DNA of 64,000 nucleotides from Bradymonadia bacterium (lineage in GTDB: Bacteria; Myxococcota_A; Bradymonadia; UBA7976; UBA1532). Shown here in pieces: positions 29,051-40,761 of this stretch. The DNA lies in assembly GCA_046290225.1 (NCBI GenBank), contig JBKAGE010000034.1, positions 128,001 to 192,000 on the forward strand, given 5' to 3'. Below the pieces are notes generated by a model. That model was not told the origin of the DNA. It did not search any database and worked only from the letters and a program-made list of their open reading frames with translations. Both the position numbers and the translations under genes were made by a program. The stretch's first letter is position 1; each line of letters begins with the position of its first letter.

Positions 29051-30577
29051 CTACTCGCCGTCCTGAGGGAAGCAGGCGAAGACATCGGGGCACATCGGCG
29101 CCTCTCCCAGCGCCTCGACACATCCGAAGGCACCCATCAACTCCGGCACACTGTTGGTGGCGCAGAGGTAGGTGCAGGCCTCAGGATCGGCGAAGGGCGT
29201 CTCCTCGTTGACCCCAACCAAACAGTCAGCCACCACCGTGCAAGCTGGCGCGCACGTCTCCACAGGAATGGGCAACCCGTCCCTACAGATCGGTACAAAC
29301 GAGCCGTCCCCTTCAGTCATGGGGTCATCTTCAGTGAGGAAGGTCACGTAGAACTGCAGCAGGGGGTCGTCGCAGGTTTCCGAAGCTGCTGCGGCGTTGA
29401 CCGCCTCTGCAGTGAAGCTGCCGTCGGCCACCGCCTCGTTGCAACCATCGATGAGCACGTTGGCAAAGCCACCCTGAATGCCTTCGATGACCGGGCAGGC
29501 ATCAGCGACGCACGCCGCAGCGCGCTCAGCCATCCCTGGGCAGCCCTCGAATGCAGGGGCCTCGAAGCAGGGGCCGAGGGCCTCACAGACTGGCGCTTCT
29601 GCTGAGCAAGCCCAGGCGCCCTCGGCGACGAAGGTCGTGGCCTGGCAGAAAAAGTCGCAGCGCTGAGGATCAGCGAGGGGGCTGTCATCTGTATCGATGC
29701 AGGCCTCGAGCTGCCCGCAGGCCGCGTCGCAGGTTTCCTGGTCTACCAGCGGGCCTGCGTTGGCGCAGAAGCCCGTGAGCACCCCGTCCTGGTCATTGGC
29801 GGGATCATCCACCAATTGTGACTGAACGTAGGGCGCCAGGAACATGCCCTGGCACATCGGATCCACCATGATGAGGTTGGAGAGATCGTCCGGGCCGACG
29901 TCGCCGCCGTTGATGGCGTCGTTACAGAACAGCGTGTAGGCCGACTCGATCAGCTCGCGGCTCTCGCCCACTGCAGCACACTCAGTCTGCAGACAATTGG
30001 CGATGCCCTCCCCGAAGATCTCACACTGAGGGTAGACGGGCTGCGCTCGGCCATCACACGCCTGTAGATAGTCATCGTTGTCGATGCTCTGCAGGCCGAA
30101 GGCCACAACATCACTGCAGGCCGCCGAGCCTTCGATGATCACGCTGAAAGAAGGCTGCTCGGCGCACGCCATCTGGCAAATGGCGTCGACCTCAGCCTCA
30201 TCCTCTGCCGCAAAGCCTGGGCACTCAGTCACAGAGCACTCGACGAATCGGGCGCAGGCAGCCTCGCACGGCTCGGGCTCTCCGCCGCCGGCGCCGCCCA
30301 TCATGCCACCCTCACCGGCCATACCGCCTTCACCGCCAGCGCCGCCTCCTGCTTCGCCGCCCATACCCGCTTCGCCGCCTGCGCCCCCACCGGCCTCGCC
30401 GTCATCGCCGGCCATTCCACCGGCGCCACCAGCACCAGCGCCGCCATCGATGGAGGCTCCACCTGCGCCACCCTCACCCTCCTGAGCGGGCGTGTCGCTG
30501 TCGTCATCGCACCCAGTGAGGGTCACAGCGACGCACAGGGCCGCCAGAGTGAAGGTCTTCAAGGGGATCCGCATCAT
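29051..30577 (-). CDS. Cys-rich repeat lipoprotein with Gly-rich tether
   Basis: LTGC-DDD lipobox, GGAGG linker, repeated CxxxC/ETCxxAC modules; AAGGA RBS. Confidence 0.75.
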   Translation of the reverse strand: MMRIPLKTFTLAALCVAVTLTGCDDDSDTPAQEGEGGAGGASIDGGAGAGGAGGMAGDDGEAGGGAGGEAGMGGEAGGGAGGEGGMAGEGGMMGGAGGGEPEPCEAACARFVECSVTECPGFAAEDEAEVDAICQMACAEQPSFSVIIEGSAACSDVVAFGLQSIDNDDYLQACDGRAQPVYPQCEIFGEGIANCLQTECAAVGESRELIESAYTLFCNDAINGGDVGPDDLSNLIMVDPMCQGMFLAPYVQSQLVDDPANDQDGVLTGFCANAGPLVDQETCDAACGQLEACIDTDDSPLADPQRCDFFCQATTFVAEGAWACSAEAPVCEALGPCFEAPAFEGCPGMAERAAACVADACPVIEGIQGGFANVLIDGCNEAVADGSFTAEAVNAAAASETCDDPLLQFYVTFLTEDDPMTEGDGSFVPICRDGLPIPVETCAPACTVVADCLVGVNEETPFADPEACTYLCATNSVPELMGAFGCVEALGEAPMCPDVFACFPQDGE

Positions 30578-30623
30578 CACGTTCCTTTCAAGAGTCGCTC
30601 GTAAGAGTGTGTAAATCGGCTGT

Positions 30624-31631
30624 TCATGGGTCGTCCACGAGGCAGGCATCGAGCTCGGTGCACAAGCCTTGTGGCGAGAGTGCGCCCAAACATGCCCAGG
30701 CGGCGTTGGAGATCTCGGGCGCGTTGTCGCTGGCACACCTGAAAATGCACTCGTCGGCGTCGGCGAGTGCACCACCATTGAATCGCCCCGGGGCGGTGCA
30801 GTCGCTGATGCGCCCACAGGCAGACGTGCACGTCTCCACAGTGAGCGGGACCCCCGCCTGGCACACGGACCGGAGAGAGACATCGGGCGCCAGAGCCCGA
30901 GGCTGCATCAACCCTGAAGAGACCTCGACGATCAACGGCGCGTCACAGGCACCGTGAGCCACGGCAGTCTGGAGCTCTCGAACAGTGAGCTGACCATTCG
31001 AGACCCAGTCGATGCATTCACTCGACAACCAGGTGAACAGAGGCTCCTGAATCTCACCGAGGACCTGGCAATCCATCTGCATGCAGACAGCGACCCACAG
31101 CGCGAACTCCTCGCACAGAGGTGCCACTGGGATGCTCGGATCGACATCGAGTATCCCTGCATCCGGGTCGCCGGGGGCAGGCACATCGAAGTCGCACTCC
31201 AGGCCAACGAGGTCGGCGAGGTTGGTGATCCACGGATCCTCGCAGTCACTGCGCTGTAGCATCGCCTCGGCTTGCCCCTGATCGAGTTCAGCGCCGATGA
31301 AAGCCCCCGAAGCGCACTCCGCAGCGAAGAGGGACTCCAGCGTCACGAGCTCTTCGATGCCCTCGATCTCACAGGCCGCCTCCAGACACCGTCGAGAGAA
31401 AGCCCCCACCTCGTCGCAGAGCGACCCTGCACCTGCATCGGGATCATCATCACGATCATCGTCGGGAAACTCGAAGCCTGGGAGTGAGCCGTCGCGCAAT
31501 CGGGCGGCGTTGCGCGGCGAATCGTCGCTGTCGTCATCACATGCATTGACGCTCAGAGCGAGGGCGGCCACGCACAACCCCCGCACAGCGAAGGCCAGCG
31601 GCCGAAAACAACGTCGTGTGGGCTCGAGCAT
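30624..31631 (-). CDS. Cys-rich repeat lipoprotein (paralog of 29051-30577)
   Basis: VNAC-DDD lipobox; shares CxxGxP..VETC..AC...DC...LAD...C.F.C pattern with the neighbour. Confidence 0.7.
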   Translation of the reverse strand: MLEPTRRCFRPLAFAVRGLCVAALALSVNACDDDSDDSPRNAARLRDGSLPGFEFPDDDRDDDPDAGAGSLCDEVGAFSRRCLEAACEIEGIEELVTLESLFAAECASGAFIGAELDQGQAEAMLQRSDCEDPWITNLADLVGLECDFDVPAPGDPDAGILDVDPSIPVAPLCEEFALWVAVCMQMDCQVLGEIQEPLFTWLSSECIDWVSNGQLTVRELQTAVAHGACDAPLIVEVSSGLMQPRALAPDVSLRSVCQAGVPLTVETCTSACGRISDCTAPGRFNGGALADADECIFRCASDNAPEISNAAWACLGALSPQGLCTELDACLVDDP

Positions 31632-31852
31632 GGGCCCCTCCGAATCACAGAGGAGCAACGATAGGACATGTGGGGAGATTCTGGGAATCTTCAGAGGCCC
31701 TGACAAAACAGCTCCCGTCGTCAGCGCCGCGATGCACTTCGCGAGACGCGAGAAACCGTCCTCGACGATGCTTCGGCATCGCCTGCGGGTTTTTCTCACG
31801 CCTCACTCGCGCCTCACGACCCTGCCTCGGTCCGCCGTTGTGCCAGGACCTC

Positions 31853-33942: not shown

Positions 33943-34878
33943 ATGTGGCGACGTAAACCGACGCGCGTGTCGGTCCAAGGCCCGATCACACCACCACTGG
34001 CGTGGCTCATCGGGTGGGCACTGCTGCTCGGCGGGTGCGTCGCCGAATCACTGCCGAGCCCGACGATCACACAGGTCAACCCCTCCCCTGCAGATCCTGG
34101 TGGGGTGCTGCTGGTCGAAGGTCGGGGCTTCGGTGCATCGAGTGGTGTCGCCGCTGTGGGCGGTCGTGGGGTCACTGTTCAACGGTGGAGCGACGCTCGC
34201 GTCCAGCTGTCTTTGCCTCAGGATCTGCCTTCAGGCGCGGCGCTGGTGGTGCTCAAGACCGCTGAGGGGCGCCCGACCGAAGGCTTCCCGGTGATCATCG
34301 GTGGCGATCAAGGCCGCACCAGCGGTCGCCGGGCCTTTGATCCACCTCCAGTGGCCGATGATGGCGGCGTGATGCCTTCGCCCGACGCAAGTGTAGATGG
34401 TGGTATTCTCCCTGGAGATGCTCAGCCTCTGCCTGATGCGATGCGCCCCGACGCCAACCTCGGCCTGAGGGCCAGCTTCACCCCAGATCCCGGCGGAGCC
34501 GATGTGCGTGTGTACATGGAAGAAGCAGCGACTCAGAGCCCGGGCACACTGACCCTGGACGTCATCACGCCAGAGCGTGCAGCAGTCTGGGGCGTGGCCT
34601 TTCACATCGCCTTCGACAACTCTCAGGTTCGACTGCGGGAGTTCTCCCCCAGCAACGGCAACAACATCGTCGCCGGAGCCCTCGGCGAAGACCGCGTCGC
34701 CTTCGGACGCCTCGTGCGCAGCCCGCAGGTGTTCACCCTCACCTTCGATCTGGTGCAGCCCGGCCAGTCGAGGATCAGCTTCCCCACGCACAACCGCACC
34801 CTGCGCACAGCCGACAACCAGCCGATCCCCGATGTGCAGTGGCTCGGAGGCGTAATCACCGTGGAGGAGGCCCCGTGA
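33943..34878 (+). CDS. Lipoprotein with IPT/TIG domain, Pro/Asp linker and C-terminal cohesin-like domain
   Basis: LLGG-C lipobox; PTITQVNPS...VEGRGFG...WSDARVQLSLP (TIG); VWGVAFHIAFDNSQV...TLTFDLVQPGQSRISF...GGVITV (cohesin-like); start uncertain. Confidence 0.7.
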   Translation: MWRRKPTRVSVQGPITPPLAWLIGWALLLGGCVAESLPSPTITQVNPSPADPGGVLLVEGRGFGASSGVAAVGGRGVTVQRWSDARVQLSLPQDLPSGAALVVLKTAEGRPTEGFPVIIGGDQGRTSGRRAFDPPPVADDGGVMPSPDASVDGGILPGDAQPLPDAMRPDANLGLRASFTPDPGGADVRVYMEEAATQSPGTLTLDVITPERAAVWGVAFHIAFDNSQVRLREFSPSNGNNIVAGALGEDRVAFGRLVRSPQVFTLTFDLVQPGQSRISFPTHNRTLRTADNQPIPDVQWLGGVITVEEAP

Positions 34879-36743
34879 TGCACTTGCGTTCACTGATCGT
34901 GCTCGGCCTCGGTGCGGTGCTGACCTCCCCCGGCCCTGTGGTCGCCCAGGGTGCACCTCAGGACACGCCGCTACAGCGGCGAGAGGCCATGCGGCGGGAC
35001 TACTTGCGTCACGGCCCCCCTGATCACTGGCGCCCTCGCGGGCGAGGCAAGCCGGATCCTGTGGGCGTGTACGATCTCATCCAGCTCAACGCCGAGCTCG
35101 ATGTGCCCCAGGGGCTGATGCCTCCCGTGGCCCAGTTCCAGGTCATCCTCGAGGCCGTCGAGCCCCTCGCTCAACTCGACATGTTGGCGCTGGCGTACAT
35201 CCCGCTGCAGGTGACGGTGAACGATCAGCCTGTAGAGTTCGGGTTCTTCCCTGACGCTGCGCTGCTTCAAATGCCCCTCGACGCCGAAGCCCTGCCAGGC
35301 GACCGGCTCGTGGTGGACATCCTGGCTCAGCTCACCCCTCAATGTGGCGACAGCATCTCCTGCAACCTCGACGGCCCATACCGTCACCTGCTCGAGTACG
35401 GCTGGTTCCCTACATCGTACGATCCACCCTACGGCGATCGCATGATCGTGGATCTGACCTTCAATACAGCAGGTGGAGAGGCACCGAACGCCAACGGCGC
35501 CCGAGTGGAGTGGGTGGTCAGGGACGACGGTACGGCGATCCACCGCTACCAGAGTGAGCTGCCTACGGTGCAGCCGATCTTCTCCGTGGGCGACACGGCC
35601 TTCAGGACACGCGCTCTCGGCGAGGTCACGCTCGATCTGTTCGTGCCTGATGGCGCAGCGGCATCGGGTGCCCCCATGGGCGAGGTGGCCGCGGACGTCA
35701 TCAACTTCTTCAGCAGCCAGCTGGGCCCCTACCCGTTCTCCAGACTGGGCATCTCCGTCATCGTGGACGATGCTGGAGTCGCTGTGGGGCCCCAGGCCAT
35801 GGCCCTCATGCCCGAGACGATCTGGGCGATCCCTCAAGGGAGCGAGCTGTTCGAAGTGACCCAGACAGTGCTCGCCCACGAGATCGCCCACCAGTACTTC
35901 TTCAACTCGGTGGTGAACACTGAAGCGGGTGACGCGTGGCTCTCCGAAGGGTGGGCGGAGTACTCCGCGGTGCTGTACTCCAACTTCACGTTCGGCACCG
36001 AGGATCACTTCCGGCGGAACTATTGGGGCTATCAGCACACCGTCCGCGATGGGGGCGATGAGGCGCTGTACAGCGTGTCCTTGCCAGAGAACCCCTTCTA
36101 CTTCGAGATCGCCTACTACAAAGGCAGCGCCACCCTCTTCATGTTGCGCAAGGCCATGGGACCCGAGGCCTTCGACGGCGCCATGCGGGCCTACATCGAG
36201 GCTTTCACCGACGAGGTGGTAAACACCCCGGAGATGCTCGAATTCTGGTCGAGGTTCATCGAAGATCCCCTGGTCTTCGAACGGTTCTCTCAGTGGGCGC
36301 TCAACCCCGGGTTCCCTCGCATCGAGGCTCAGGTGACCCCCGCCCGCAGCGACGAGGATGGCATGCTCCTGCGCATCGTACAGCGAGGGCCCGTCTTCGT
36401 CGGCGATCTGCCAGTTCGACTGGTTCGGGCGGATGGCAGCACTCAGACCGTACTCCTCGAGGTTGAGGGGCCGGAGACGGAGGCCAATTTCGTCTCTCGT
36501 GATCTACAAGGGGTGCAGCTCGATCCCGAGTTGACCCTCTTTCGACAGATCGCCCCCACTCTGCCCGGTGATGGCAACCTCGACGGCATCACCGACGGGA
36601 TGGACTTCCTCGACTGCGTCGCCGCTCAAGGGCGGGCTACGCCTGATCCGCGGTGGCGGGACGAGCTGGACTACAACGGCGATTTGGCGATCGACGGCGC
36701 GGATCTCCAAGTGATCATCAATCGCTTCGGCGACGGTTGGTGA
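34878..36743 (+). CDS. Secreted M1-family zinc aminopeptidase with C-terminal dockerin-like domain
   Basis: Signal peptide; AHEIAHQYF..WLSEGWAEY (HExxH-x18-E), AYYKG; GDGNLDGITDGMD...LDYNGDLAIDGADL paired Ca-binding loops; TGATG coupling. Confidence 0.88.
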   Translation: MHLRSLIVLGLGAVLTSPGPVVAQGAPQDTPLQRREAMRRDYLRHGPPDHWRPRGRGKPDPVGVYDLIQLNAELDVPQGLMPPVAQFQVILEAVEPLAQLDMLALAYIPLQVTVNDQPVEFGFFPDAALLQMPLDAEALPGDRLVVDILAQLTPQCGDSISCNLDGPYRHLLEYGWFPTSYDPPYGDRMIVDLTFNTAGGEAPNANGARVEWVVRDDGTAIHRYQSELPTVQPIFSVGDTAFRTRALGEVTLDLFVPDGAAASGAPMGEVAADVINFFSSQLGPYPFSRLGISVIVDDAGVAVGPQAMALMPETIWAIPQGSELFEVTQTVLAHEIAHQYFFNSVVNTEAGDAWLSEGWAEYSAVLYSNFTFGTEDHFRRNYWGYQHTVRDGGDEALYSVSLPENPFYFEIAYYKGSATLFMLRKAMGPEAFDGAMRAYIEAFTDEVVNTPEMLEFWSRFIEDPLVFERFSQWALNPGFPRIEAQVTPARSDEDGMLLRIVQRGPVFVGDLPVRLVRADGSTQTVLLEVEGPETEANFVSRDLQGVQLDPELTLFRQIAPTLPGDGNLDGITDGMDFLDCVAAQGRATPDPRWRDELDYNGDLAIDGADLQVIINRFGDGW

Positions 36744-36773: not shown

Positions 36774-38552
36774 TCACTGCGAGATGCCCGAGGCCCACTC
36801 CCCATCTGCCCGCGTCACCGCTTCCACGGTATAGCGCCCCAGCGACAAATCAGCGGGCAGCTGGCCCTGCAACTGGAACCGGCCCTCGGGATCAGGCGTG
36901 AGCGGCGGCCCCACGGGGAGAGGCGGCCCCGACTCGGGCTTCAGATAGATCTGCACAGGCACCTTTGGCCCGGGCATCCCCGCGACATCGGTGATTCGGC
37001 CCTTGAAGGTGAAGGGCAGCGGCTCACCCCGATAGACCACGCCGTCGTGATCAGCATCGACGGTCAATGTCACCCGTACTGGTTGCCCGGGCCCGTCAGC
37101 GGCCACCCTGCTCGGGTAGGGCACCACGGGCGCGGAGGGTGCCGCGGGGGTCGTACCGCCAGGCTCGACGTCTCCAGGCGTCCCTGTCCCTGGACCCGAC
37201 GGCTCGCTGAGGCCCCCTGCGCCGCTCTGGGGCCCTGAGGCACCGGGATCTCCACTGGTGCCTGTCTGCCCAGGCGAAGGCGGCCCTGCGGCCCCTGGCT
37301 TGAGCGGGGGTGGCGTGCCGGCGAGGGTGGCCCCACCTGCTGGCGGCTGATCGGGTTGCCCACTCTGTGGCACATCGCCGGAGGCCATTCGGTTGCTGTA
37401 GCTCTTGAGGTAGCTCTCGGGCTTGGAGAACGGGTCTGCCGGGGGCTGGTGCAGGCGCCGCCCCTCACCCTGTTCCAGGTTGAGCTCCGGGGCGACGCCG
37501 CCCAGATCCACCCGGCGCCAGAAGCCGTCTGGCGTGAGCACCTCGGCGAAGGCGTGGGCCTCGTTGGCCACAAAGCGGGTCGGCACCCCGGCGGCCCGGG
37601 CGGTGATCGTGAAGGCAAAGGTCCGGTGCCGGCACACGCCCACGCCGCCGAGGGCAAGATCGGTATAGATGTCCCCGGAGTTCGGCAGAGTGTCGCTAGC
37701 CTTGAAGGCGCGAAAGTGGCGCACGAGCTTGTCGAGTTCTCGAGAGAATGAGCCCTCGGGTCTCACATTGAGGGTGGACAAAACAGCTCGACCTCGGGCC
37801 CGAATCTCTGGGGGCAGAGCGGTCATCGGGTGCCCGTCCGAGACGTCGAGGGGCACATTCCCCGGCAGGCCTCCAGAGAAGTAGATCGAGCCGGCATCGA
37901 CGAGCATGCGCAGCCGTACGGTGCCCCGTGCATTTGTGGTGATGTAGTAATTCGCCGCCTCGTCCACGAGGACCTTCACCTCTGGCCCTTCGATGGCGAG
38001 GATGCGCATGTCCGGTGACACCGACGGGATCGGGTGCGGGCTGCGATCCGCGACCTGCACGGTGATGTCACCCCAGAACATCTCCCTGCCCGCGGTGGCC
38101 TGGCGCGGCCCCTTCGGCGCAGGTGAGAGGCGGGTCTTGGAGATGATCATCTCGTAGTCACGGCGAACCACGTCGAAGACCGAGTCTCTCCGGAAGGGTG
38201 CCACAGAGGGGTTGAACATGGCGTGATAGGTCAGTGGCTCGTCGACAGTCGTCTTGCGATCGGGTCGGATCGACCCTTTGCGGGTGACATCGTCGGGGCC
38301 TTCACCGAAGGCGGGCCCAGGAGGACTCTCGGGATCAGGCGCCTGAAGGTCGACGCCCTCTCGTCTGACGGCCTCGGGCAGCGCGCCGCCTCCGTCGATG
38401 AGCCCGTCCCCCCGCGAGGCGATGGGATGCGCGGAGAAAAAATCCTCGGGTACAAACTCGTGGCGTAGCCGCTGCTGACCATGGGCCGTGGCGCCAATCG
38501 TCAACACCGCCGCCCCGATGAGGGGGCCGATTGCTCGGTGTCGGTGGGCCAT
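36774..38552 (-). CDS. Secreted transglutaminase-like (Cys-His-Asp) protein with Pro/Gly linker and Ig-like tail
   Basis: GVCRHRTFAF, NEAHAFAEV, WRRVDLGG; signal peptide; GAGGAG RBS. Confidence 0.75.
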   Translation of the reverse strand: MAHRHRAIGPLIGAAVLTIGATAHGQQRLRHEFVPEDFFSAHPIASRGDGLIDGGGALPEAVRREGVDLQAPDPESPPGPAFGEGPDDVTRKGSIRPDRKTTVDEPLTYHAMFNPSVAPFRRDSVFDVVRRDYEMIISKTRLSPAPKGPRQATAGREMFWGDITVQVADRSPHPIPSVSPDMRILAIEGPEVKVLVDEAANYYITTNARGTVRLRMLVDAGSIYFSGGLPGNVPLDVSDGHPMTALPPEIRARGRAVLSTLNVRPEGSFSRELDKLVRHFRAFKASDTLPNSGDIYTDLALGGVGVCRHRTFAFTITARAAGVPTRFVANEAHAFAEVLTPDGFWRRVDLGGVAPELNLEQGEGRRLHQPPADPFSKPESYLKSYSNRMASGDVPQSGQPDQPPAGGATLAGTPPPLKPGAAGPPSPGQTGTSGDPGASGPQSGAGGLSEPSGPGTGTPGDVEPGGTTPAAPSAPVVPYPSRVAADGPGQPVRVTLTVDADHDGVVYRGEPLPFTFKGRITDVAGMPGPKVPVQIYLKPESGPPLPVGPPLTPDPEGRFQLQGQLPADLSLGRYTVEAVTRADGEWASGISQ

Positions 38553-38634
38553 TTCTCCTCCAGTCTCGCCAAGGATCTCGTTGCAAGATTGCCCCGGATC
38601 AACACGGGGCACTATGATTTTGTGCCTGCTGATC

Positions 38635-40761
38635 ATGCCAACTTCTCTGCACCATCTCCCACACCTGATTCGGCCAGCCCTCCGAGTCGCCCTCGTCTCC
38701 GCCTTGGCCTGGGGCTGTGACGCCAGCGAGCCTGCACGCGCTCAACTGGATGCGGGCGTCGATGCTGACATCCAGGTAGATGCCGACGCCGATGTCGATG
38801 GGGGTCTCCCACCCTCTCTCGTGTGCGATCTCGTGGCCTTCGAGGAGAGCGGTGTTCAGCTGATCCGCTGCGATGATGGCGCCCACCACAGCCTCAACGT
38901 CTTCGGTGCCGAGATCTGCAGAGGTCTCACGGCTCATGTGAGCCTGGGTGGAGAGACGCTGGCCCCGGAAGACTATCCGCAAGCGGTCTGGCTGCCCACG
39001 GCGCAGGGCGAGGTCGAGGGCCGCTTCTCGGGGCTGCCGGGGCGCCCGGTCCTCCTCTGGCGCCTGGGCCTCGTGGACGGCCAGCTGCGATCCCGTGTCA
39101 GCCTGCAATTCGACGAGGCCAGCGACACCCAACTCGTGCGCCTGGCCCCACTCTCCTTCTCTCCCTGGGGCGGGTGTCGGCCTGATCCCCGAACCGAGGC
39201 GCCGCGCTGGCGTGCATGGGGCCCGGACGGGGCGGCGCCGATGACATGGTCTTCCGCCCTGAGCCGAAATGACGGCCATTGTATGTGGGGCGCTGAGCAG
39301 GCGCTGTGCGTGCTCGCAGAGCCCCCAGCGTCGAGGGGGCTCGTCGATCGCCACGCCGTCGACGTGCACGCGGCCCCTGAGGATCGAGTGGCCTGGACGC
39401 TTGTCCCCCGCTTTCCGCCTCTGGAGATCTCTCAGCCGGCGCGCCTCGACTCGACACAGTGGTGGCTCGCCGTGGCGCCCTCCACCGCCGACATTGGCCA
39501 GTGGTGGTCCCGTCGGCTCTCGGCCCTCATCGATCCCTCGATCTCCCGGCCCGAAGCCCCGTGGGGCTGGACGAGCTCTGGTGCCTACGGCGCCCTGGTC
39601 AACGCGAGTGTGTTGCGCGCTCATCTCGAGTCTCTCTCTGAACTCGAGGGATTGACGCCGCCGGAGCTCATGATGCACGGCATTTGGTACCCCGCCCTCG
39701 GTGAGTGGCGTCCAGGGGCCGCCTTCGATGAGGTCTGGCCTGCCCTTGACGCCACCTTGGGTGTGCAGTGGCCCCTCCTCCAGGTTTCGGACGAAACACG
39801 CATCCTCGCGGAGCAGCCCCAGATCAGGCTGCTCTCCAGCGAGGGGGCGCCCATCGCCTGTGGGGACGATCCGAGCCGATGTGGCATCCTCGATCCACGG
39901 CAGCCCGCTGTACGGGACCTTCTCGTGCGCTCGATGATGGCGTGGCCCACCTCAGTGCGCACAGCAGACCTCACTGCCCTCGCCGCCGCGCTGGAGGCCG
40001 ATCCTCAAGGCATCGTTGCCCTTGTAGACGCGCTGCAGGCAGCCTCCGATATTCACCTCACGCTCCCGGCAGATGCAGGCTGGCCGGTGATGCGACGACC
40101 CCTGACACTTCGTGTGGCGGGTGGGGTGCAGTCCCCTCTCGGTGCAGATTGCGCTGAAGAAGATCGAGAGTACGCAGGCCCGAGGACCGACAGTTGCGAA
40201 CGCGCCCTCGTCGATCTGCAACCTGACGACGGTGGGGGGCCCTCGCCCGACTGGTCGAGCCGGCCCCGAGCCATCGCCCACGACCTGCAACGCCTCTGGC
40301 CTGCAGGCGCCGCAGGTCATGTGCTCGATCCCGGTCCACTCGTGCTCGGGGCCCCTCTGCCCGACAACATTGCCCGGCAATGGTCTGCCGTGGGCCTGAT
40401 CGCTGGTGGCCCCTGGCGCCTGGGCGATCAGCCAGAGGGCTTGTCGGCACGGCGTTGGCGCCTCTTCGCCGATCCGCTGCTCGAGGGTCTGACCGGTCAG
40501 GGCGCTGCCGCCGCGCTGGCGGACAAAGTCTCCTCTGTGGAAGATGCTCCACCAGGTGTCTGGCGGCGATCGGGCCAGCTCGTGGTGATCTTCAACTGGG
40601 GCGACTCCCGGCTCACGGTGGAGGGCGCTGATCGATGGGTGGACTGGAGCGGCCCCACCGCGCGTCTCTTCGATGAGAGCCAGTGGGAGGATCCAGCGGA
40701 AATCGGGCCGTTGATTCTACCACCCCAAGACGTTGTGGTACTTCGCCCTGTGGTGGAGTAG
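38635..40761 (+). CDS. Lipoprotein resembling a degenerate GH36 (alpha-galactosidase-like) fold
   Basis: AWGC-D lipobox; PWGWTS, GIW...GEW, LDPRQPAVRD, LDPG, LGD, VIFNW align by eye with GH36 motif order, but the catalytic Asp motifs are not evident. Confidence 0.5.
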   Translation: MPTSLHHLPHLIRPALRVALVSALAWGCDASEPARAQLDAGVDADIQVDADADVDGGLPPSLVCDLVAFEESGVQLIRCDDGAHHSLNVFGAEICRGLTAHVSLGGETLAPEDYPQAVWLPTAQGEVEGRFSGLPGRPVLLWRLGLVDGQLRSRVSLQFDEASDTQLVRLAPLSFSPWGGCRPDPRTEAPRWRAWGPDGAAPMTWSSALSRNDGHCMWGAEQALCVLAEPPASRGLVDRHAVDVHAAPEDRVAWTLVPRFPPLEISQPARLDSTQWWLAVAPSTADIGQWWSRRLSALIDPSISRPEAPWGWTSSGAYGALVNASVLRAHLESLSELEGLTPPELMMHGIWYPALGEWRPGAAFDEVWPALDATLGVQWPLLQVSDETRILAEQPQIRLLSSEGAPIACGDDPSRCGILDPRQPAVRDLLVRSMMAWPTSVRTADLTALAAALEADPQGIVALVDALQAASDIHLTLPADAGWPVMRRPLTLRVAGGVQSPLGADCAEEDREYAGPRTDSCERALVDLQPDDGGGPSPDWSSRPRAIAHDLQRLWPAGAAGHVLDPGPLVLGAPLPDNIARQWSAVGLIAGGPWRLGDQPEGLSARRWRLFADPLLEGLTGQGAAAALADKVSSVEDAPPGVWRRSGQLVVIFNWGDSRLTVEGADRWVDWSGPTARLFDESQWEDPAEIGPLILPPQDVVVLRPVVE

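Follow-up and report, generated by a model that had tools for sequence, protein, structure and literature searches.

A conserved gene pair for a cohesin lipoprotein and a dockerin-bearing M1-fold peptidase in a Bradymonadia bacterium and its relatives

Do two overlapping genes of a Bradymonadia bacterium encode a cellulosome-style docking system for surface proteases, or something narrower? The pair lies at 33943..36743 of the window, that is, of the whole 64,000-nucleotide stretch that was analyzed (GenBank assembly GCA_046290225.1, contig JBKAGE010000034.1, positions 128,001 to 192,000 of the forward strand), in a genome of 8.6 Mb with 64% GC and 99% completeness. A preliminary description, made from the sequence of the window, had read gene 1 as a membrane-anchored mini-scaffoldin with a cohesin domain and gene 2 as an M1 aminopeptidase with a terminal dockerin, the former tethering the latter, and possibly other dockerin enzymes, to the cell envelope. 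The analysis presented here indicates that the pair is real, conserved and well supported as a cohesin-dockerin system; it is narrower than a cellulosome-like system, and its enzyme is odder than first thought. Judging from sequences and structural models, the lipid-anchored cohesin protein and the secreted dockerin peptidase probably bind one-to-one, holding a single, non-classical peptidase on the envelope.

The two overlapping open reading frames, and every motif quoted in the preliminary description, are present in the sequence:

33943..34878, plus strand: gene 1, lipoprotein with a single cohesin (P0001), open reading frame of 311 amino acids
34863..34880, plus strand: GGAGG ribosome site and GTGATG stop/start overlap, suggesting translational coupling
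34878..36743, plus strand: gene 2, secreted M1-fold zinc peptidase with C-terminal dockerin (P0002), 621 amino acids; possible GTG start at 34875

Conservation of the gene pair

The gene 1 orthologue lies directly upstream of the gene 2 orthologue in all 18 loci of relatives, none of the 11 loci of ordinary M1 paralogues has a cohesin neighbour, and of 61 genomes the cohesin profile matched exactly the 19 that hold gene 2. Broader profiles, run over 401 genomes of the phylum, matched cohesins 76 times (71 genomes) and dockerins 108 times (93 genomes); for 66 of the 76 cohesin matches, a dockerin match on the same strand lies no more than 3.5 kb away, in 64 genomes from 13 families, and the conservation of the pair that the preliminary description had proposed to examine is thus borne out among near loci and across the phylum. 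Related genomes contribute to all these counts, which are therefore not independent. The cohesin gene comes first in 50 of the paired matches and second in 16; among the unpaired cohesin matches, of which part were inspected, several of the 10 lie near contig ends. All 34 distant pairs that were retrieved (of 52) consist of an M1-fold peptidase with a terminal dockerin and a single-cohesin lipoprotein, with the start codon in a 4-base overlap in 27 cases, another overlap in three and a short gap in four. The TIG domain that precedes the cohesin is present in partners from the same order and missing from the shorter partners in distant families, the mature lipoproteins measuring 260-285 amino acids in near relatives and 156-247 in the distant ones that lack it. 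Because the linkage survives both reversal of the gene order and loss of this domain, a functional pairing is strongly supported. The distribution of the pair is patchy: it is present in 28 of 29 genomes of one family and in none of the 35 genomes of another. The family was recovered by genome searches; word-seeded protein searches were nearly blind to it, the cohesin query finding itself alone and those for the peptidase alignments yielding 3 and 4 proteins.

At the junction in the window, GTGATG allows gene 2 to start either at ATG 34878, with a 1-base overlap, or at GTG 34875, with a 4-base overlap. The GTG start is favoured because in 17 of the 18 relatives the 4-base position holds a start codon in frame, including L009, in which the true start is probably further on.

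The cohesin and dockerin domains

The features on which the predicted interaction rests are the following:

34027..34038, plus strand: lipobox LGGC in the sequence, residues 29-32, with Cys32 as the predicted lipidation site
34060..34302, plus strand: IPT/TIG domain, a putative spacer (Pfam TIG 20.2 bits over residues 40-104, cut-off 20.9)
34303..34458, plus strand: Pro/Asp/Gly-rich linker, from the sequence
34459..34875, plus strand: all-beta cohesin domain, residues 173-311 (139 residues), identified by model, structure searches and family profile
36567..36740, plus strand: dockerin of gene 2, two Ca-binding loop-helix motifs (loops 36570-36605 and 36669-36704)

According to the model, the C-terminal domain of gene 1 folds as a cohesin, a nine-stranded jelly-roll. 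The AlphaFold2 model, built with an alignment that includes 17 orthologues, is all-beta with a predicted local distance difference test score (pLDDT) of 91.3. In a Foldseek search all 38 rows shown are cohesin entries (best E 1.7e-5), and a VIA structure search against 48,161 chains ranks cohesins in the first 15 rows, with Z-scores of 10.0-12.3 (best match 6kgc_A, Z 12.3, root-mean-square deviation (rmsd) of 3.1 across 123 residues), whereas the highest-ranking match of another fold reaches 9.9; an Atlas search with the same domain agrees. The architecture originally assigned to gene 1, lipobox, IPT/TIG domain, Pro/Asp linker and cohesin-fold domain, therefore stands. The family profile, searched against 1.84 billion proteins, retrieved orthologues first and then multi-cohesin proteins and short cohesin lipoproteins; 36 of the 150 listed matches were scanned with Pfam, and the multi-cohesin proteins score strongly for Pfam Cohesin. 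Because the family profile retrieves proteins with strong Cohesin matches, homology to Cohesin is established indirectly. When the PDB was searched by sequence with the cohesin profile, all matches were weak, with the Clostridium perfringens NagJ cohesin at E 0.055; the haemocyanin repeat that ranked first in that search was rejected as an artefact. The wider family includes lipoproteins of about 180 amino acids that consist of a lipobox and one cohesin (P0109, P0113, P0142, P0145).

The terminal duplicated Ca-loop of gene 2 is a dockerin, as the preliminary description held. Dockerin_1 (PF00404) aligns with it across the whole profile and matches 15 of 17 family members at E<=0.01 (best 5e-8), and the three best matches in a PDB search with the dockerin profile are dockerins. 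Dockerins are recognized by two Ca-binding loop-helix repeats with Asp or Asn at positions 1, 3, 5, 9 and 12. Gene 2 fits this pattern: Asp occupies positions 1 and 12 in each of the two loops without exception among the 52 aligned members, and two helices are present in the modelled domain. Recognition position 10 is Gly in repeat 1 in 49 of 52 members and variable in repeat 2; the recognition residues 10/11 are accordingly not repeated in both halves, as they are in dockerins with a dual binding mode. This asymmetry points to binding in a single mode through helix 1, and the same reasoning has been applied to another dockerin (PMC13487519). A search with PF07595 gave no match anywhere, the controls included, and is uninformative. 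A double-Ca-loop pattern run over the genome returned mostly Cys/Asp-rich thrombospondin-3-like repeats, which were rejected as dockerins; dozens of large proteins of this genome contain such Asp/Cys-rich Ca-binding repeats, which by pattern can be mistaken for dockerins.

A complex model of the two domains, which had been proposed as a check of the pairing, does predict an interface, scoring 0.68 against 0.09 for the best control, a mark that is reached by 116 of 157 solved complexes and by 2 of 215 mismatched pairs. The runs agree in at least 80% of the contacts, with a partner pLDDT of at least 53. The predicted contacts run from dockerin helix 1 to cohesin strands 3, 5, 6 and 8 (our numbering, from the model), and the canonical dockerin-binding face of cohesins is the 8-3-6-5 sheet (PMC5141474). 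Because similar complexes have been solved, the pass may reflect memory, and it speaks for likeness to known complexes, not for binding as such. Seven cohesin positions reach a conservation of at least 90%, and four of them (Gly217, Ala219, His221 and Arg288) fall within the 17-residue interface, with a post hoc p of 0.004.

In this genome the pair looks one-to-one by its sequences. Each of the three cohesin and two dockerin profiles that were run matched this locus and no other, and the count of other dockerin proteins suggested in the preliminary description produced little: a Pfam scan added a single dockerin-like stretch, located where a 4.4-kb contig ends (L001, G000:C29:2564-4366, minus strand). 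That gene has no start; its N-terminal part resembles a dockerin (Pfam 31.8 bits), and the gene also encodes Cys/Asp repeats and a long stretch of hexapeptide-like repeats; its contig has the lowest GC of the assembly (59%) and is possibly foreign. It was rejected as a partner because its residues at recognition positions 10/11 differ. Among the 14 genomes with a match at E<=0.001, 13 have a single one. Cellulosomes and their scaffoldins are defined by several cohesins and many dockerin enzymes, and here there is one cohesin per protein and per genome. The docking of further dockerin enzymes is thus unsupported, because this 99%-complete genome has one cohesin and one cognate dockerin.

An M1-fold peptidase without the amino-anchor glutamate

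The remaining features of gene 2 are as follows:

34878..34949, plus strand: signal peptide without a lipobox, a hydrophobic N-terminus (end approximate)
35343..35363, plus strand: Cys156-x5-Cys162, likely a disulphide; both Cys present in 49 of 52 aligned members
35778..35795, plus strand: strand aligned without gaps to GAMENW of PSA, reading VAVGPQ, with Gly304 in place of the amino-anchor Glu
35877..35948, plus strand: zinc site HEIAH-x18-E (H334, E335, H338, E357), invariant in 52 of 52
36114..36116, plus strand: catalytic Tyr413 (YYKG), invariant in 52 of 52
36306..36563, plus strand: beta-sandwich (M1 domain III; model strands E427-E506 and PSA alignment), directly joined to the dockerin

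Gene 2 matches Pfam Peptidase_M1 with 67 bits, and His334, Glu335, His338, Glu357 and Tyr413 do not vary in the family alignment; the spacer between the zinc ligands ranges from 17 to 21 in a wider set of peptidases. The model of residues 55-621 (pLDDT 95.4, predicted template modelling score (pTM) 0.94) matches M1 peptidases, with domains I and II present, the best structural match being the two-domain Deinococcus M1dr (Z 30.3, rmsd 2.7 over 398 residues). Alignment of the model with PSA spans residue 55 to 642 and covers, with the domain boundaries of bioRxiv 2023.05.30.542994, domains I-III and about 48 residues of domain IV. Because the alignment runs to residue 642, the dockerin stands where the 320-residue lid domain IV begins.

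The Glu of the GxMEN motif in M1 aminopeptidases binds the free amino end of the substrate (PMC6222927; bioRxiv 2023.05.30.542994). In the corresponding column of the 52 family rows we find Gly in 30, Ala in 12, Ser in 9, Val in 1 and Glu in none. A GxMEN-like pattern occurs once among 58 family peptidases, outside the motif (the set omits two loci that repeat sequences already included, and one member is cut by a contig end); all 11 ordinary M1 paralogues, used as a control, have GAMEN or GGMEN. By its sequence, then, the gene 2 family is a gluzincin with an intact catalytic site that falls outside the M1 aminopeptidases as delimited by GxMEN. The label 'M1 aminopeptidase' survives in part: the HEIAH-x18-E and YYKG motifs and the M1 fold hold, and 'aminopeptidase' is doubtful, with the amino-anchor Glu in 0 of 52 members and the lid replaced.

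In a tree built in quick mode, which dropped two rows with a longer zinc-ligand spacer, the dockerin-bearing peptidases form their own branch (Shimodaira-Hasegawa-like approximate likelihood ratio 96); gene 2 groups with Myxococcota records, and the nearest Atlas cluster is mostly Myxococcota. The loss of GxMEN is not unique, as other uncharacterised bacterial M1-like groups lack the motif too. Many M1-like proteins of Acidobacteriota, Gemmatimonadota, Zixibacteria and Ignavibacteria (L050-L112) have GQGWP, GQGFP or GQAFP instead and, by their sequences, are a large unstudied group of anchor-less M1 folds. Dockerin-like C-termini beside an M1-like gene were also seen in two Ignavibacteriaceae records (L056:9036-9641, L056:6605-8683, L072:6140-8212). 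Within gene 2, a helical segment after the signal peptide (window 34950-35050), with a conserved R/K-x-D stretch at its end, is a possible propeptide, and His170 (window 35385-35387), near the position of an M1 S1-pocket residue, is invariant in 14 near orthologues.

Genomic neighbourhood

A comparison of neighbours found no gene that recurs beside the pair across families, nutrient-uptake, transporter and predation genes included. In one family the pair lies head-to-head with genes for an extracytoplasmic function (ECF) sigma factor and a FecR-type anti-sigma factor, in 12 of the 13 loci of that family (L181, L184, L185, L188-L191, L194, L195, L202, L205, L206). These genes were rejected as part of the system, being confined to one family (12 of the 47 loci examined) and not found in the window; TatD, nadA, aroC and a transglutaminase-like neighbour were rejected as family-level synteny. 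At the locus itself, neither a promoter-like site nor a fitting terminator was found. Around the pair, the window contains a transglutaminase-like exported protein that converges on gene 2 (36774-38636, minus strand), a predicted lipoprotein of 757 amino acids with no Pfam match (38488-40761, plus strand), and two Cys-rich predicted lipoproteins with repeated C-x3-C and no Pfam match that are syntenic in the family (29051-30883 and 30624-31799, minus strand).

Cellular location and proposed mechanism

Lipoproteins were called by a pattern for a signal peptide with a lipobox Cys, which the partner lipoproteins match in 47 of 50 cases in its strict form and in 50 of 50 in its relaxed form. A hydrophobic N-terminus is present in 38 of 40 peptidases and the lipobox pattern in none of the 40. 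The membrane-anchored tether of the preliminary description thus remains, with the lipobox on the cohesin partner and none on the peptidase; its role as a multi-enzyme scaffoldin does not. In Myxococcus xanthus, Lys at position +2 of a lipoprotein is tied to the inner membrane (PMC3222651). None of the 50 lipoproteins has Lys at +2, and 7 of the 50 have Ala at +7; because Lys at +2 is absent, this rule argues against the inner membrane and leaves the outer membrane by default, which, by these sequences, is the likeliest home of the pair, facing either the periplasm or the exterior. The surface position and the part in prey digestion that the preliminary description assigned to the pair are not supported by the analysis. 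The likely disulphide between Cys156 and Cys162 fits export of the peptidase.

The following mechanism can be proposed. The overlapping genes would likely be co-translated, yielding the two proteins in equal amounts. Both products carry export motifs and would be exported by Sec, the gene 1 protein becoming lipidated and the gene 2 protein, which has no anchor of its own, losing its signal peptide. Ca2+ would fold the dockerin, whose first helix is predicted to bind the cohesin at its 8-3-6-5 sheet, in one orientation only. The tethered enzyme would retain its zinc site and the catalytic Glu and Tyr and would lack the amino-anchor Glu and lid domain IV. Because these two elements are missing, the enzyme likely cuts without gripping a free amino end, and its substrates may be N-blocked or larger peptides, or envelope proteins.

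Several results weigh against this reading. The cohesin and dockerin domains of the window both fall short of the Pfam cut-offs: Dockerin_1 scores 21.3 bits at a cut-off of 22.9, and the Cohesin profile check proposed at the outset came out negative, PF00963 giving no match to the domain in the window and weak ones in 4 of 18 relatives (best E 0.0058). Calmodulins match the dockerin profile too, 1-2 orders of magnitude below dockerins. Mean conservation of the interface is not above that of the remaining residues, either in the cohesin (0.56 vs 0.51, p 0.37) or in the dockerin (0.67 vs 0.60, p 0.17). Strict one-to-one pairing is challenged by three genomes of one family that have a second M1-dockerin gene without an adjacent cohesin match. 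The lipoprotein sorting rule was derived in a different class of the phylum. Finally, the N-terminal domain walls off the M1 active site in PSA (bioRxiv 2023.05.30.542994), and because gene 2 retains this domain, it is not certain that the enzyme acts as a true endopeptidase, and substrates blocked at the N-terminus are no less plausible than cleavage at internal sites; a two-domain M1 enzyme without the lid is still named an aminopeptidase in the title of the reference that describes it.

The second M1-dockerin genes of these three genomes are divergent (L207:485-2395, L208:2241-4175, L209:2120-4057), and the genomes also hold the full pair; one of the genes sits 485 bases from a contig end. 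They are possible second clients of the same cohesin.

Alternative explanations

Four other explanations were weighed against a simple one-to-one tether. In the first, which we consider unlikely, the cohesin would not just tether the enzyme but also act as its detachable lid or switch, docking beside the substrate groove and gating or activating the enzyme only on the membrane. Consistent with this, the whole peptidase is modelled as a rigid body (pTM 0.94), in which the dockerin reaches a pLDDT of about 95, compared with 53-54 when modelled alone; the PSA alignment, by ending at residue 642, extends about 48 residues into domain IV; the coupling is strictly 1:1 in both gene orders; and, in one family, 12 of 13 loci have the ECF sigma factor and FecR-type genes next to the pair in divergent orientation. 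However, an X-module-dockerin dyad also packs rigidly without gating (PMC5141474), and the sigma and FecR neighbours occur in one family alone and not in the window, so that common descent explains them. A fuller form of the idea, and an equally unlikely one, is a split M1 enzyme: an unstudied subfamily of M1-fold zinc hydrolases with no amino-end recognition, in which a dockerin would have taken the place of the lid domain and the lipid-anchored cohesin would serve as a removable lid, switched by Ca, that positions the enzyme and gates it as well. If this were true, cohesin-dockerin interaction would be a regulator of catalysis in the Myxococcota envelope and more than a clip.

The second explanation, also doubtful, is a tethered ordinary aminopeptidase for feeding, in which another residue would serve as the amino anchor and the enzyme would trim peptides from food or prey at the surface. 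The exported M1 fold with an intact domain I would suit such a role, and peptidase-bearing cohesin-dockerin systems have been proposed to serve polypeptide feeding (PMC6461901, PMC8542988). Nevertheless, the anchor column lacks Glu in 52 of 52 members, the N-terminal domain contains no acidic residue whose conservation reaches 60%, ordinary GAMEN-type M1 genes are kept in the same genomes, and no transporter recurs beside the pair.

Third, the two proteins might not bind at all: their linkage would reflect a shared pathway, the 'dockerin' would be a stabilising EF-hand-like Ca cap, and the cohesin would bind something else. The weak Pfam scores, the calmodulin matches and a complex pass that is possibly memory would fit; we nevertheless regard this as improbable, since the linkage is kept despite gene-order reversal and TIG loss, the cohesin residues with the highest conservation are small or exposed ones that lie on the canonical binding sheet, and the M1 paralogues that lack a dockerin have a cohesin neighbour in 0 of 11 loci. 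Least probable of all is a mini-cellulosome hub, with the lipoprotein docking several dockerin enzymes in turn: the unaccompanied second M1-dockerin genes of three genomes, and the 42 of 108 dockerin matches in the phylum that have no adjacent cohesin match, are compatible with it, but each lipoprotein has one cohesin, this genome has one cognate dockerin, 13 of the 14 genomes with a match at E<=0.001 have a single one, and 24 genomes have a dockerin match and no cohesin match, so that most unpaired dockerins belong to other systems or reflect contig breaks.

Relation to known systems

Single-cohesin anchoring proteins of Clostridium thermocellum are attached by surface-layer homology (SLH) domains. 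OlpA (3ul4), OlpC (4dh2) and SdbA (2bm3) of this bacterium, all among the structural matches, resemble the pair described here in that one cell-bound cohesin holds a dockerin partner, but they serve a multi-enzyme cellulosome with many dockerins, whereas here the anchor is a lipid and there is one dedicated, neighbour-encoded partner. The beta-sandwich that directly precedes the dockerin of gene 2 recalls the X-dockerin dyads (PMC5141474).

Minimal and peptidase-bearing cohesin-dockerin systems are already known, and the occurrence of cohesins and dockerins outside cellulosomes is established (PMC9012536, which cites Peer et al. 2009). A close parallel is the ClcC/ClcD heterodimer of Cellulosilyticum lentocellum, which was shown by experiment (PMC13487519) and likewise consists of adjacent genes, the sole cohesin and the sole dockerin of the genome, an asymmetric dockerin and a single binding mode. 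In that case, however, ClcD is a GH5 cellulase, ClcC is a CBM3-X2-cohesin protein with no classical cell anchor, and the host is Gram-positive; the pair described here has a lipoprotein anchor, an M1-fold peptidase and a diderm host phylum, and is conserved over 13 families. Non-cellulosomal peptidase assemblies of diderms, predicted from genomes, include the 'Planctosome' of freshwater Planctomycetes (PMC6461901) and the complex of Ca. Stygibacter (PMC8542988, where a peptidase cohesin-dockerin assembly is proposed for Cloacimonadota). These differ in having large anchors, adaptors or tandem cohesins and M12B, M14, S8 or C25 peptidases, unlike the two-gene, one-to-one unit with an M1-fold enzyme found here. 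In Ruminococcus flavefaciens, RflaF_05439 is a putative peptidase with an X-dockerin on the cell-anchored cohesin ScaE, but it is a cysteine peptidase from a Gram-positive bacterium, and the cellulosomal anchor that it binds has many other clients (PMC12484212). With the M1 aminopeptidases PSA, PepN, tricorn factor F3 and M1dr, gene 2 shares domains I-III, HExxH-x18-E and the catalytic Tyr; unlike them, it lacks the GxMEN glutamate, has a dockerin for domain IV, is exported and has a conserved Cys pair. Our searches found no publication on the Myxococcota pair among the listings of the open-access literature, where the supplements of Myxococcota surveys or of Peer et al. may list the genes; 'dockerin' and 'cohesin' are missing from the main text of two Myxococcota genome preprints, and bioRxiv 2023.11.21.568195 concerns other organisms.

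The family annotated as 'M1 aminopeptidase' is flagged by this analysis as lacking the residue that makes M1 enzymes aminopeptidases. To our knowledge, the majority of non-cellulosomal cohesins and dockerins lack a known partner or role; in the present case the partner and the stoichiometry can be read from the genome, and the two-gene unit is small enough for direct expression and testing. The pair would extend cohesin-dockerin anchoring to the lipoproteins of a diderm phylum and would represent a natural, compact module for membrane display.

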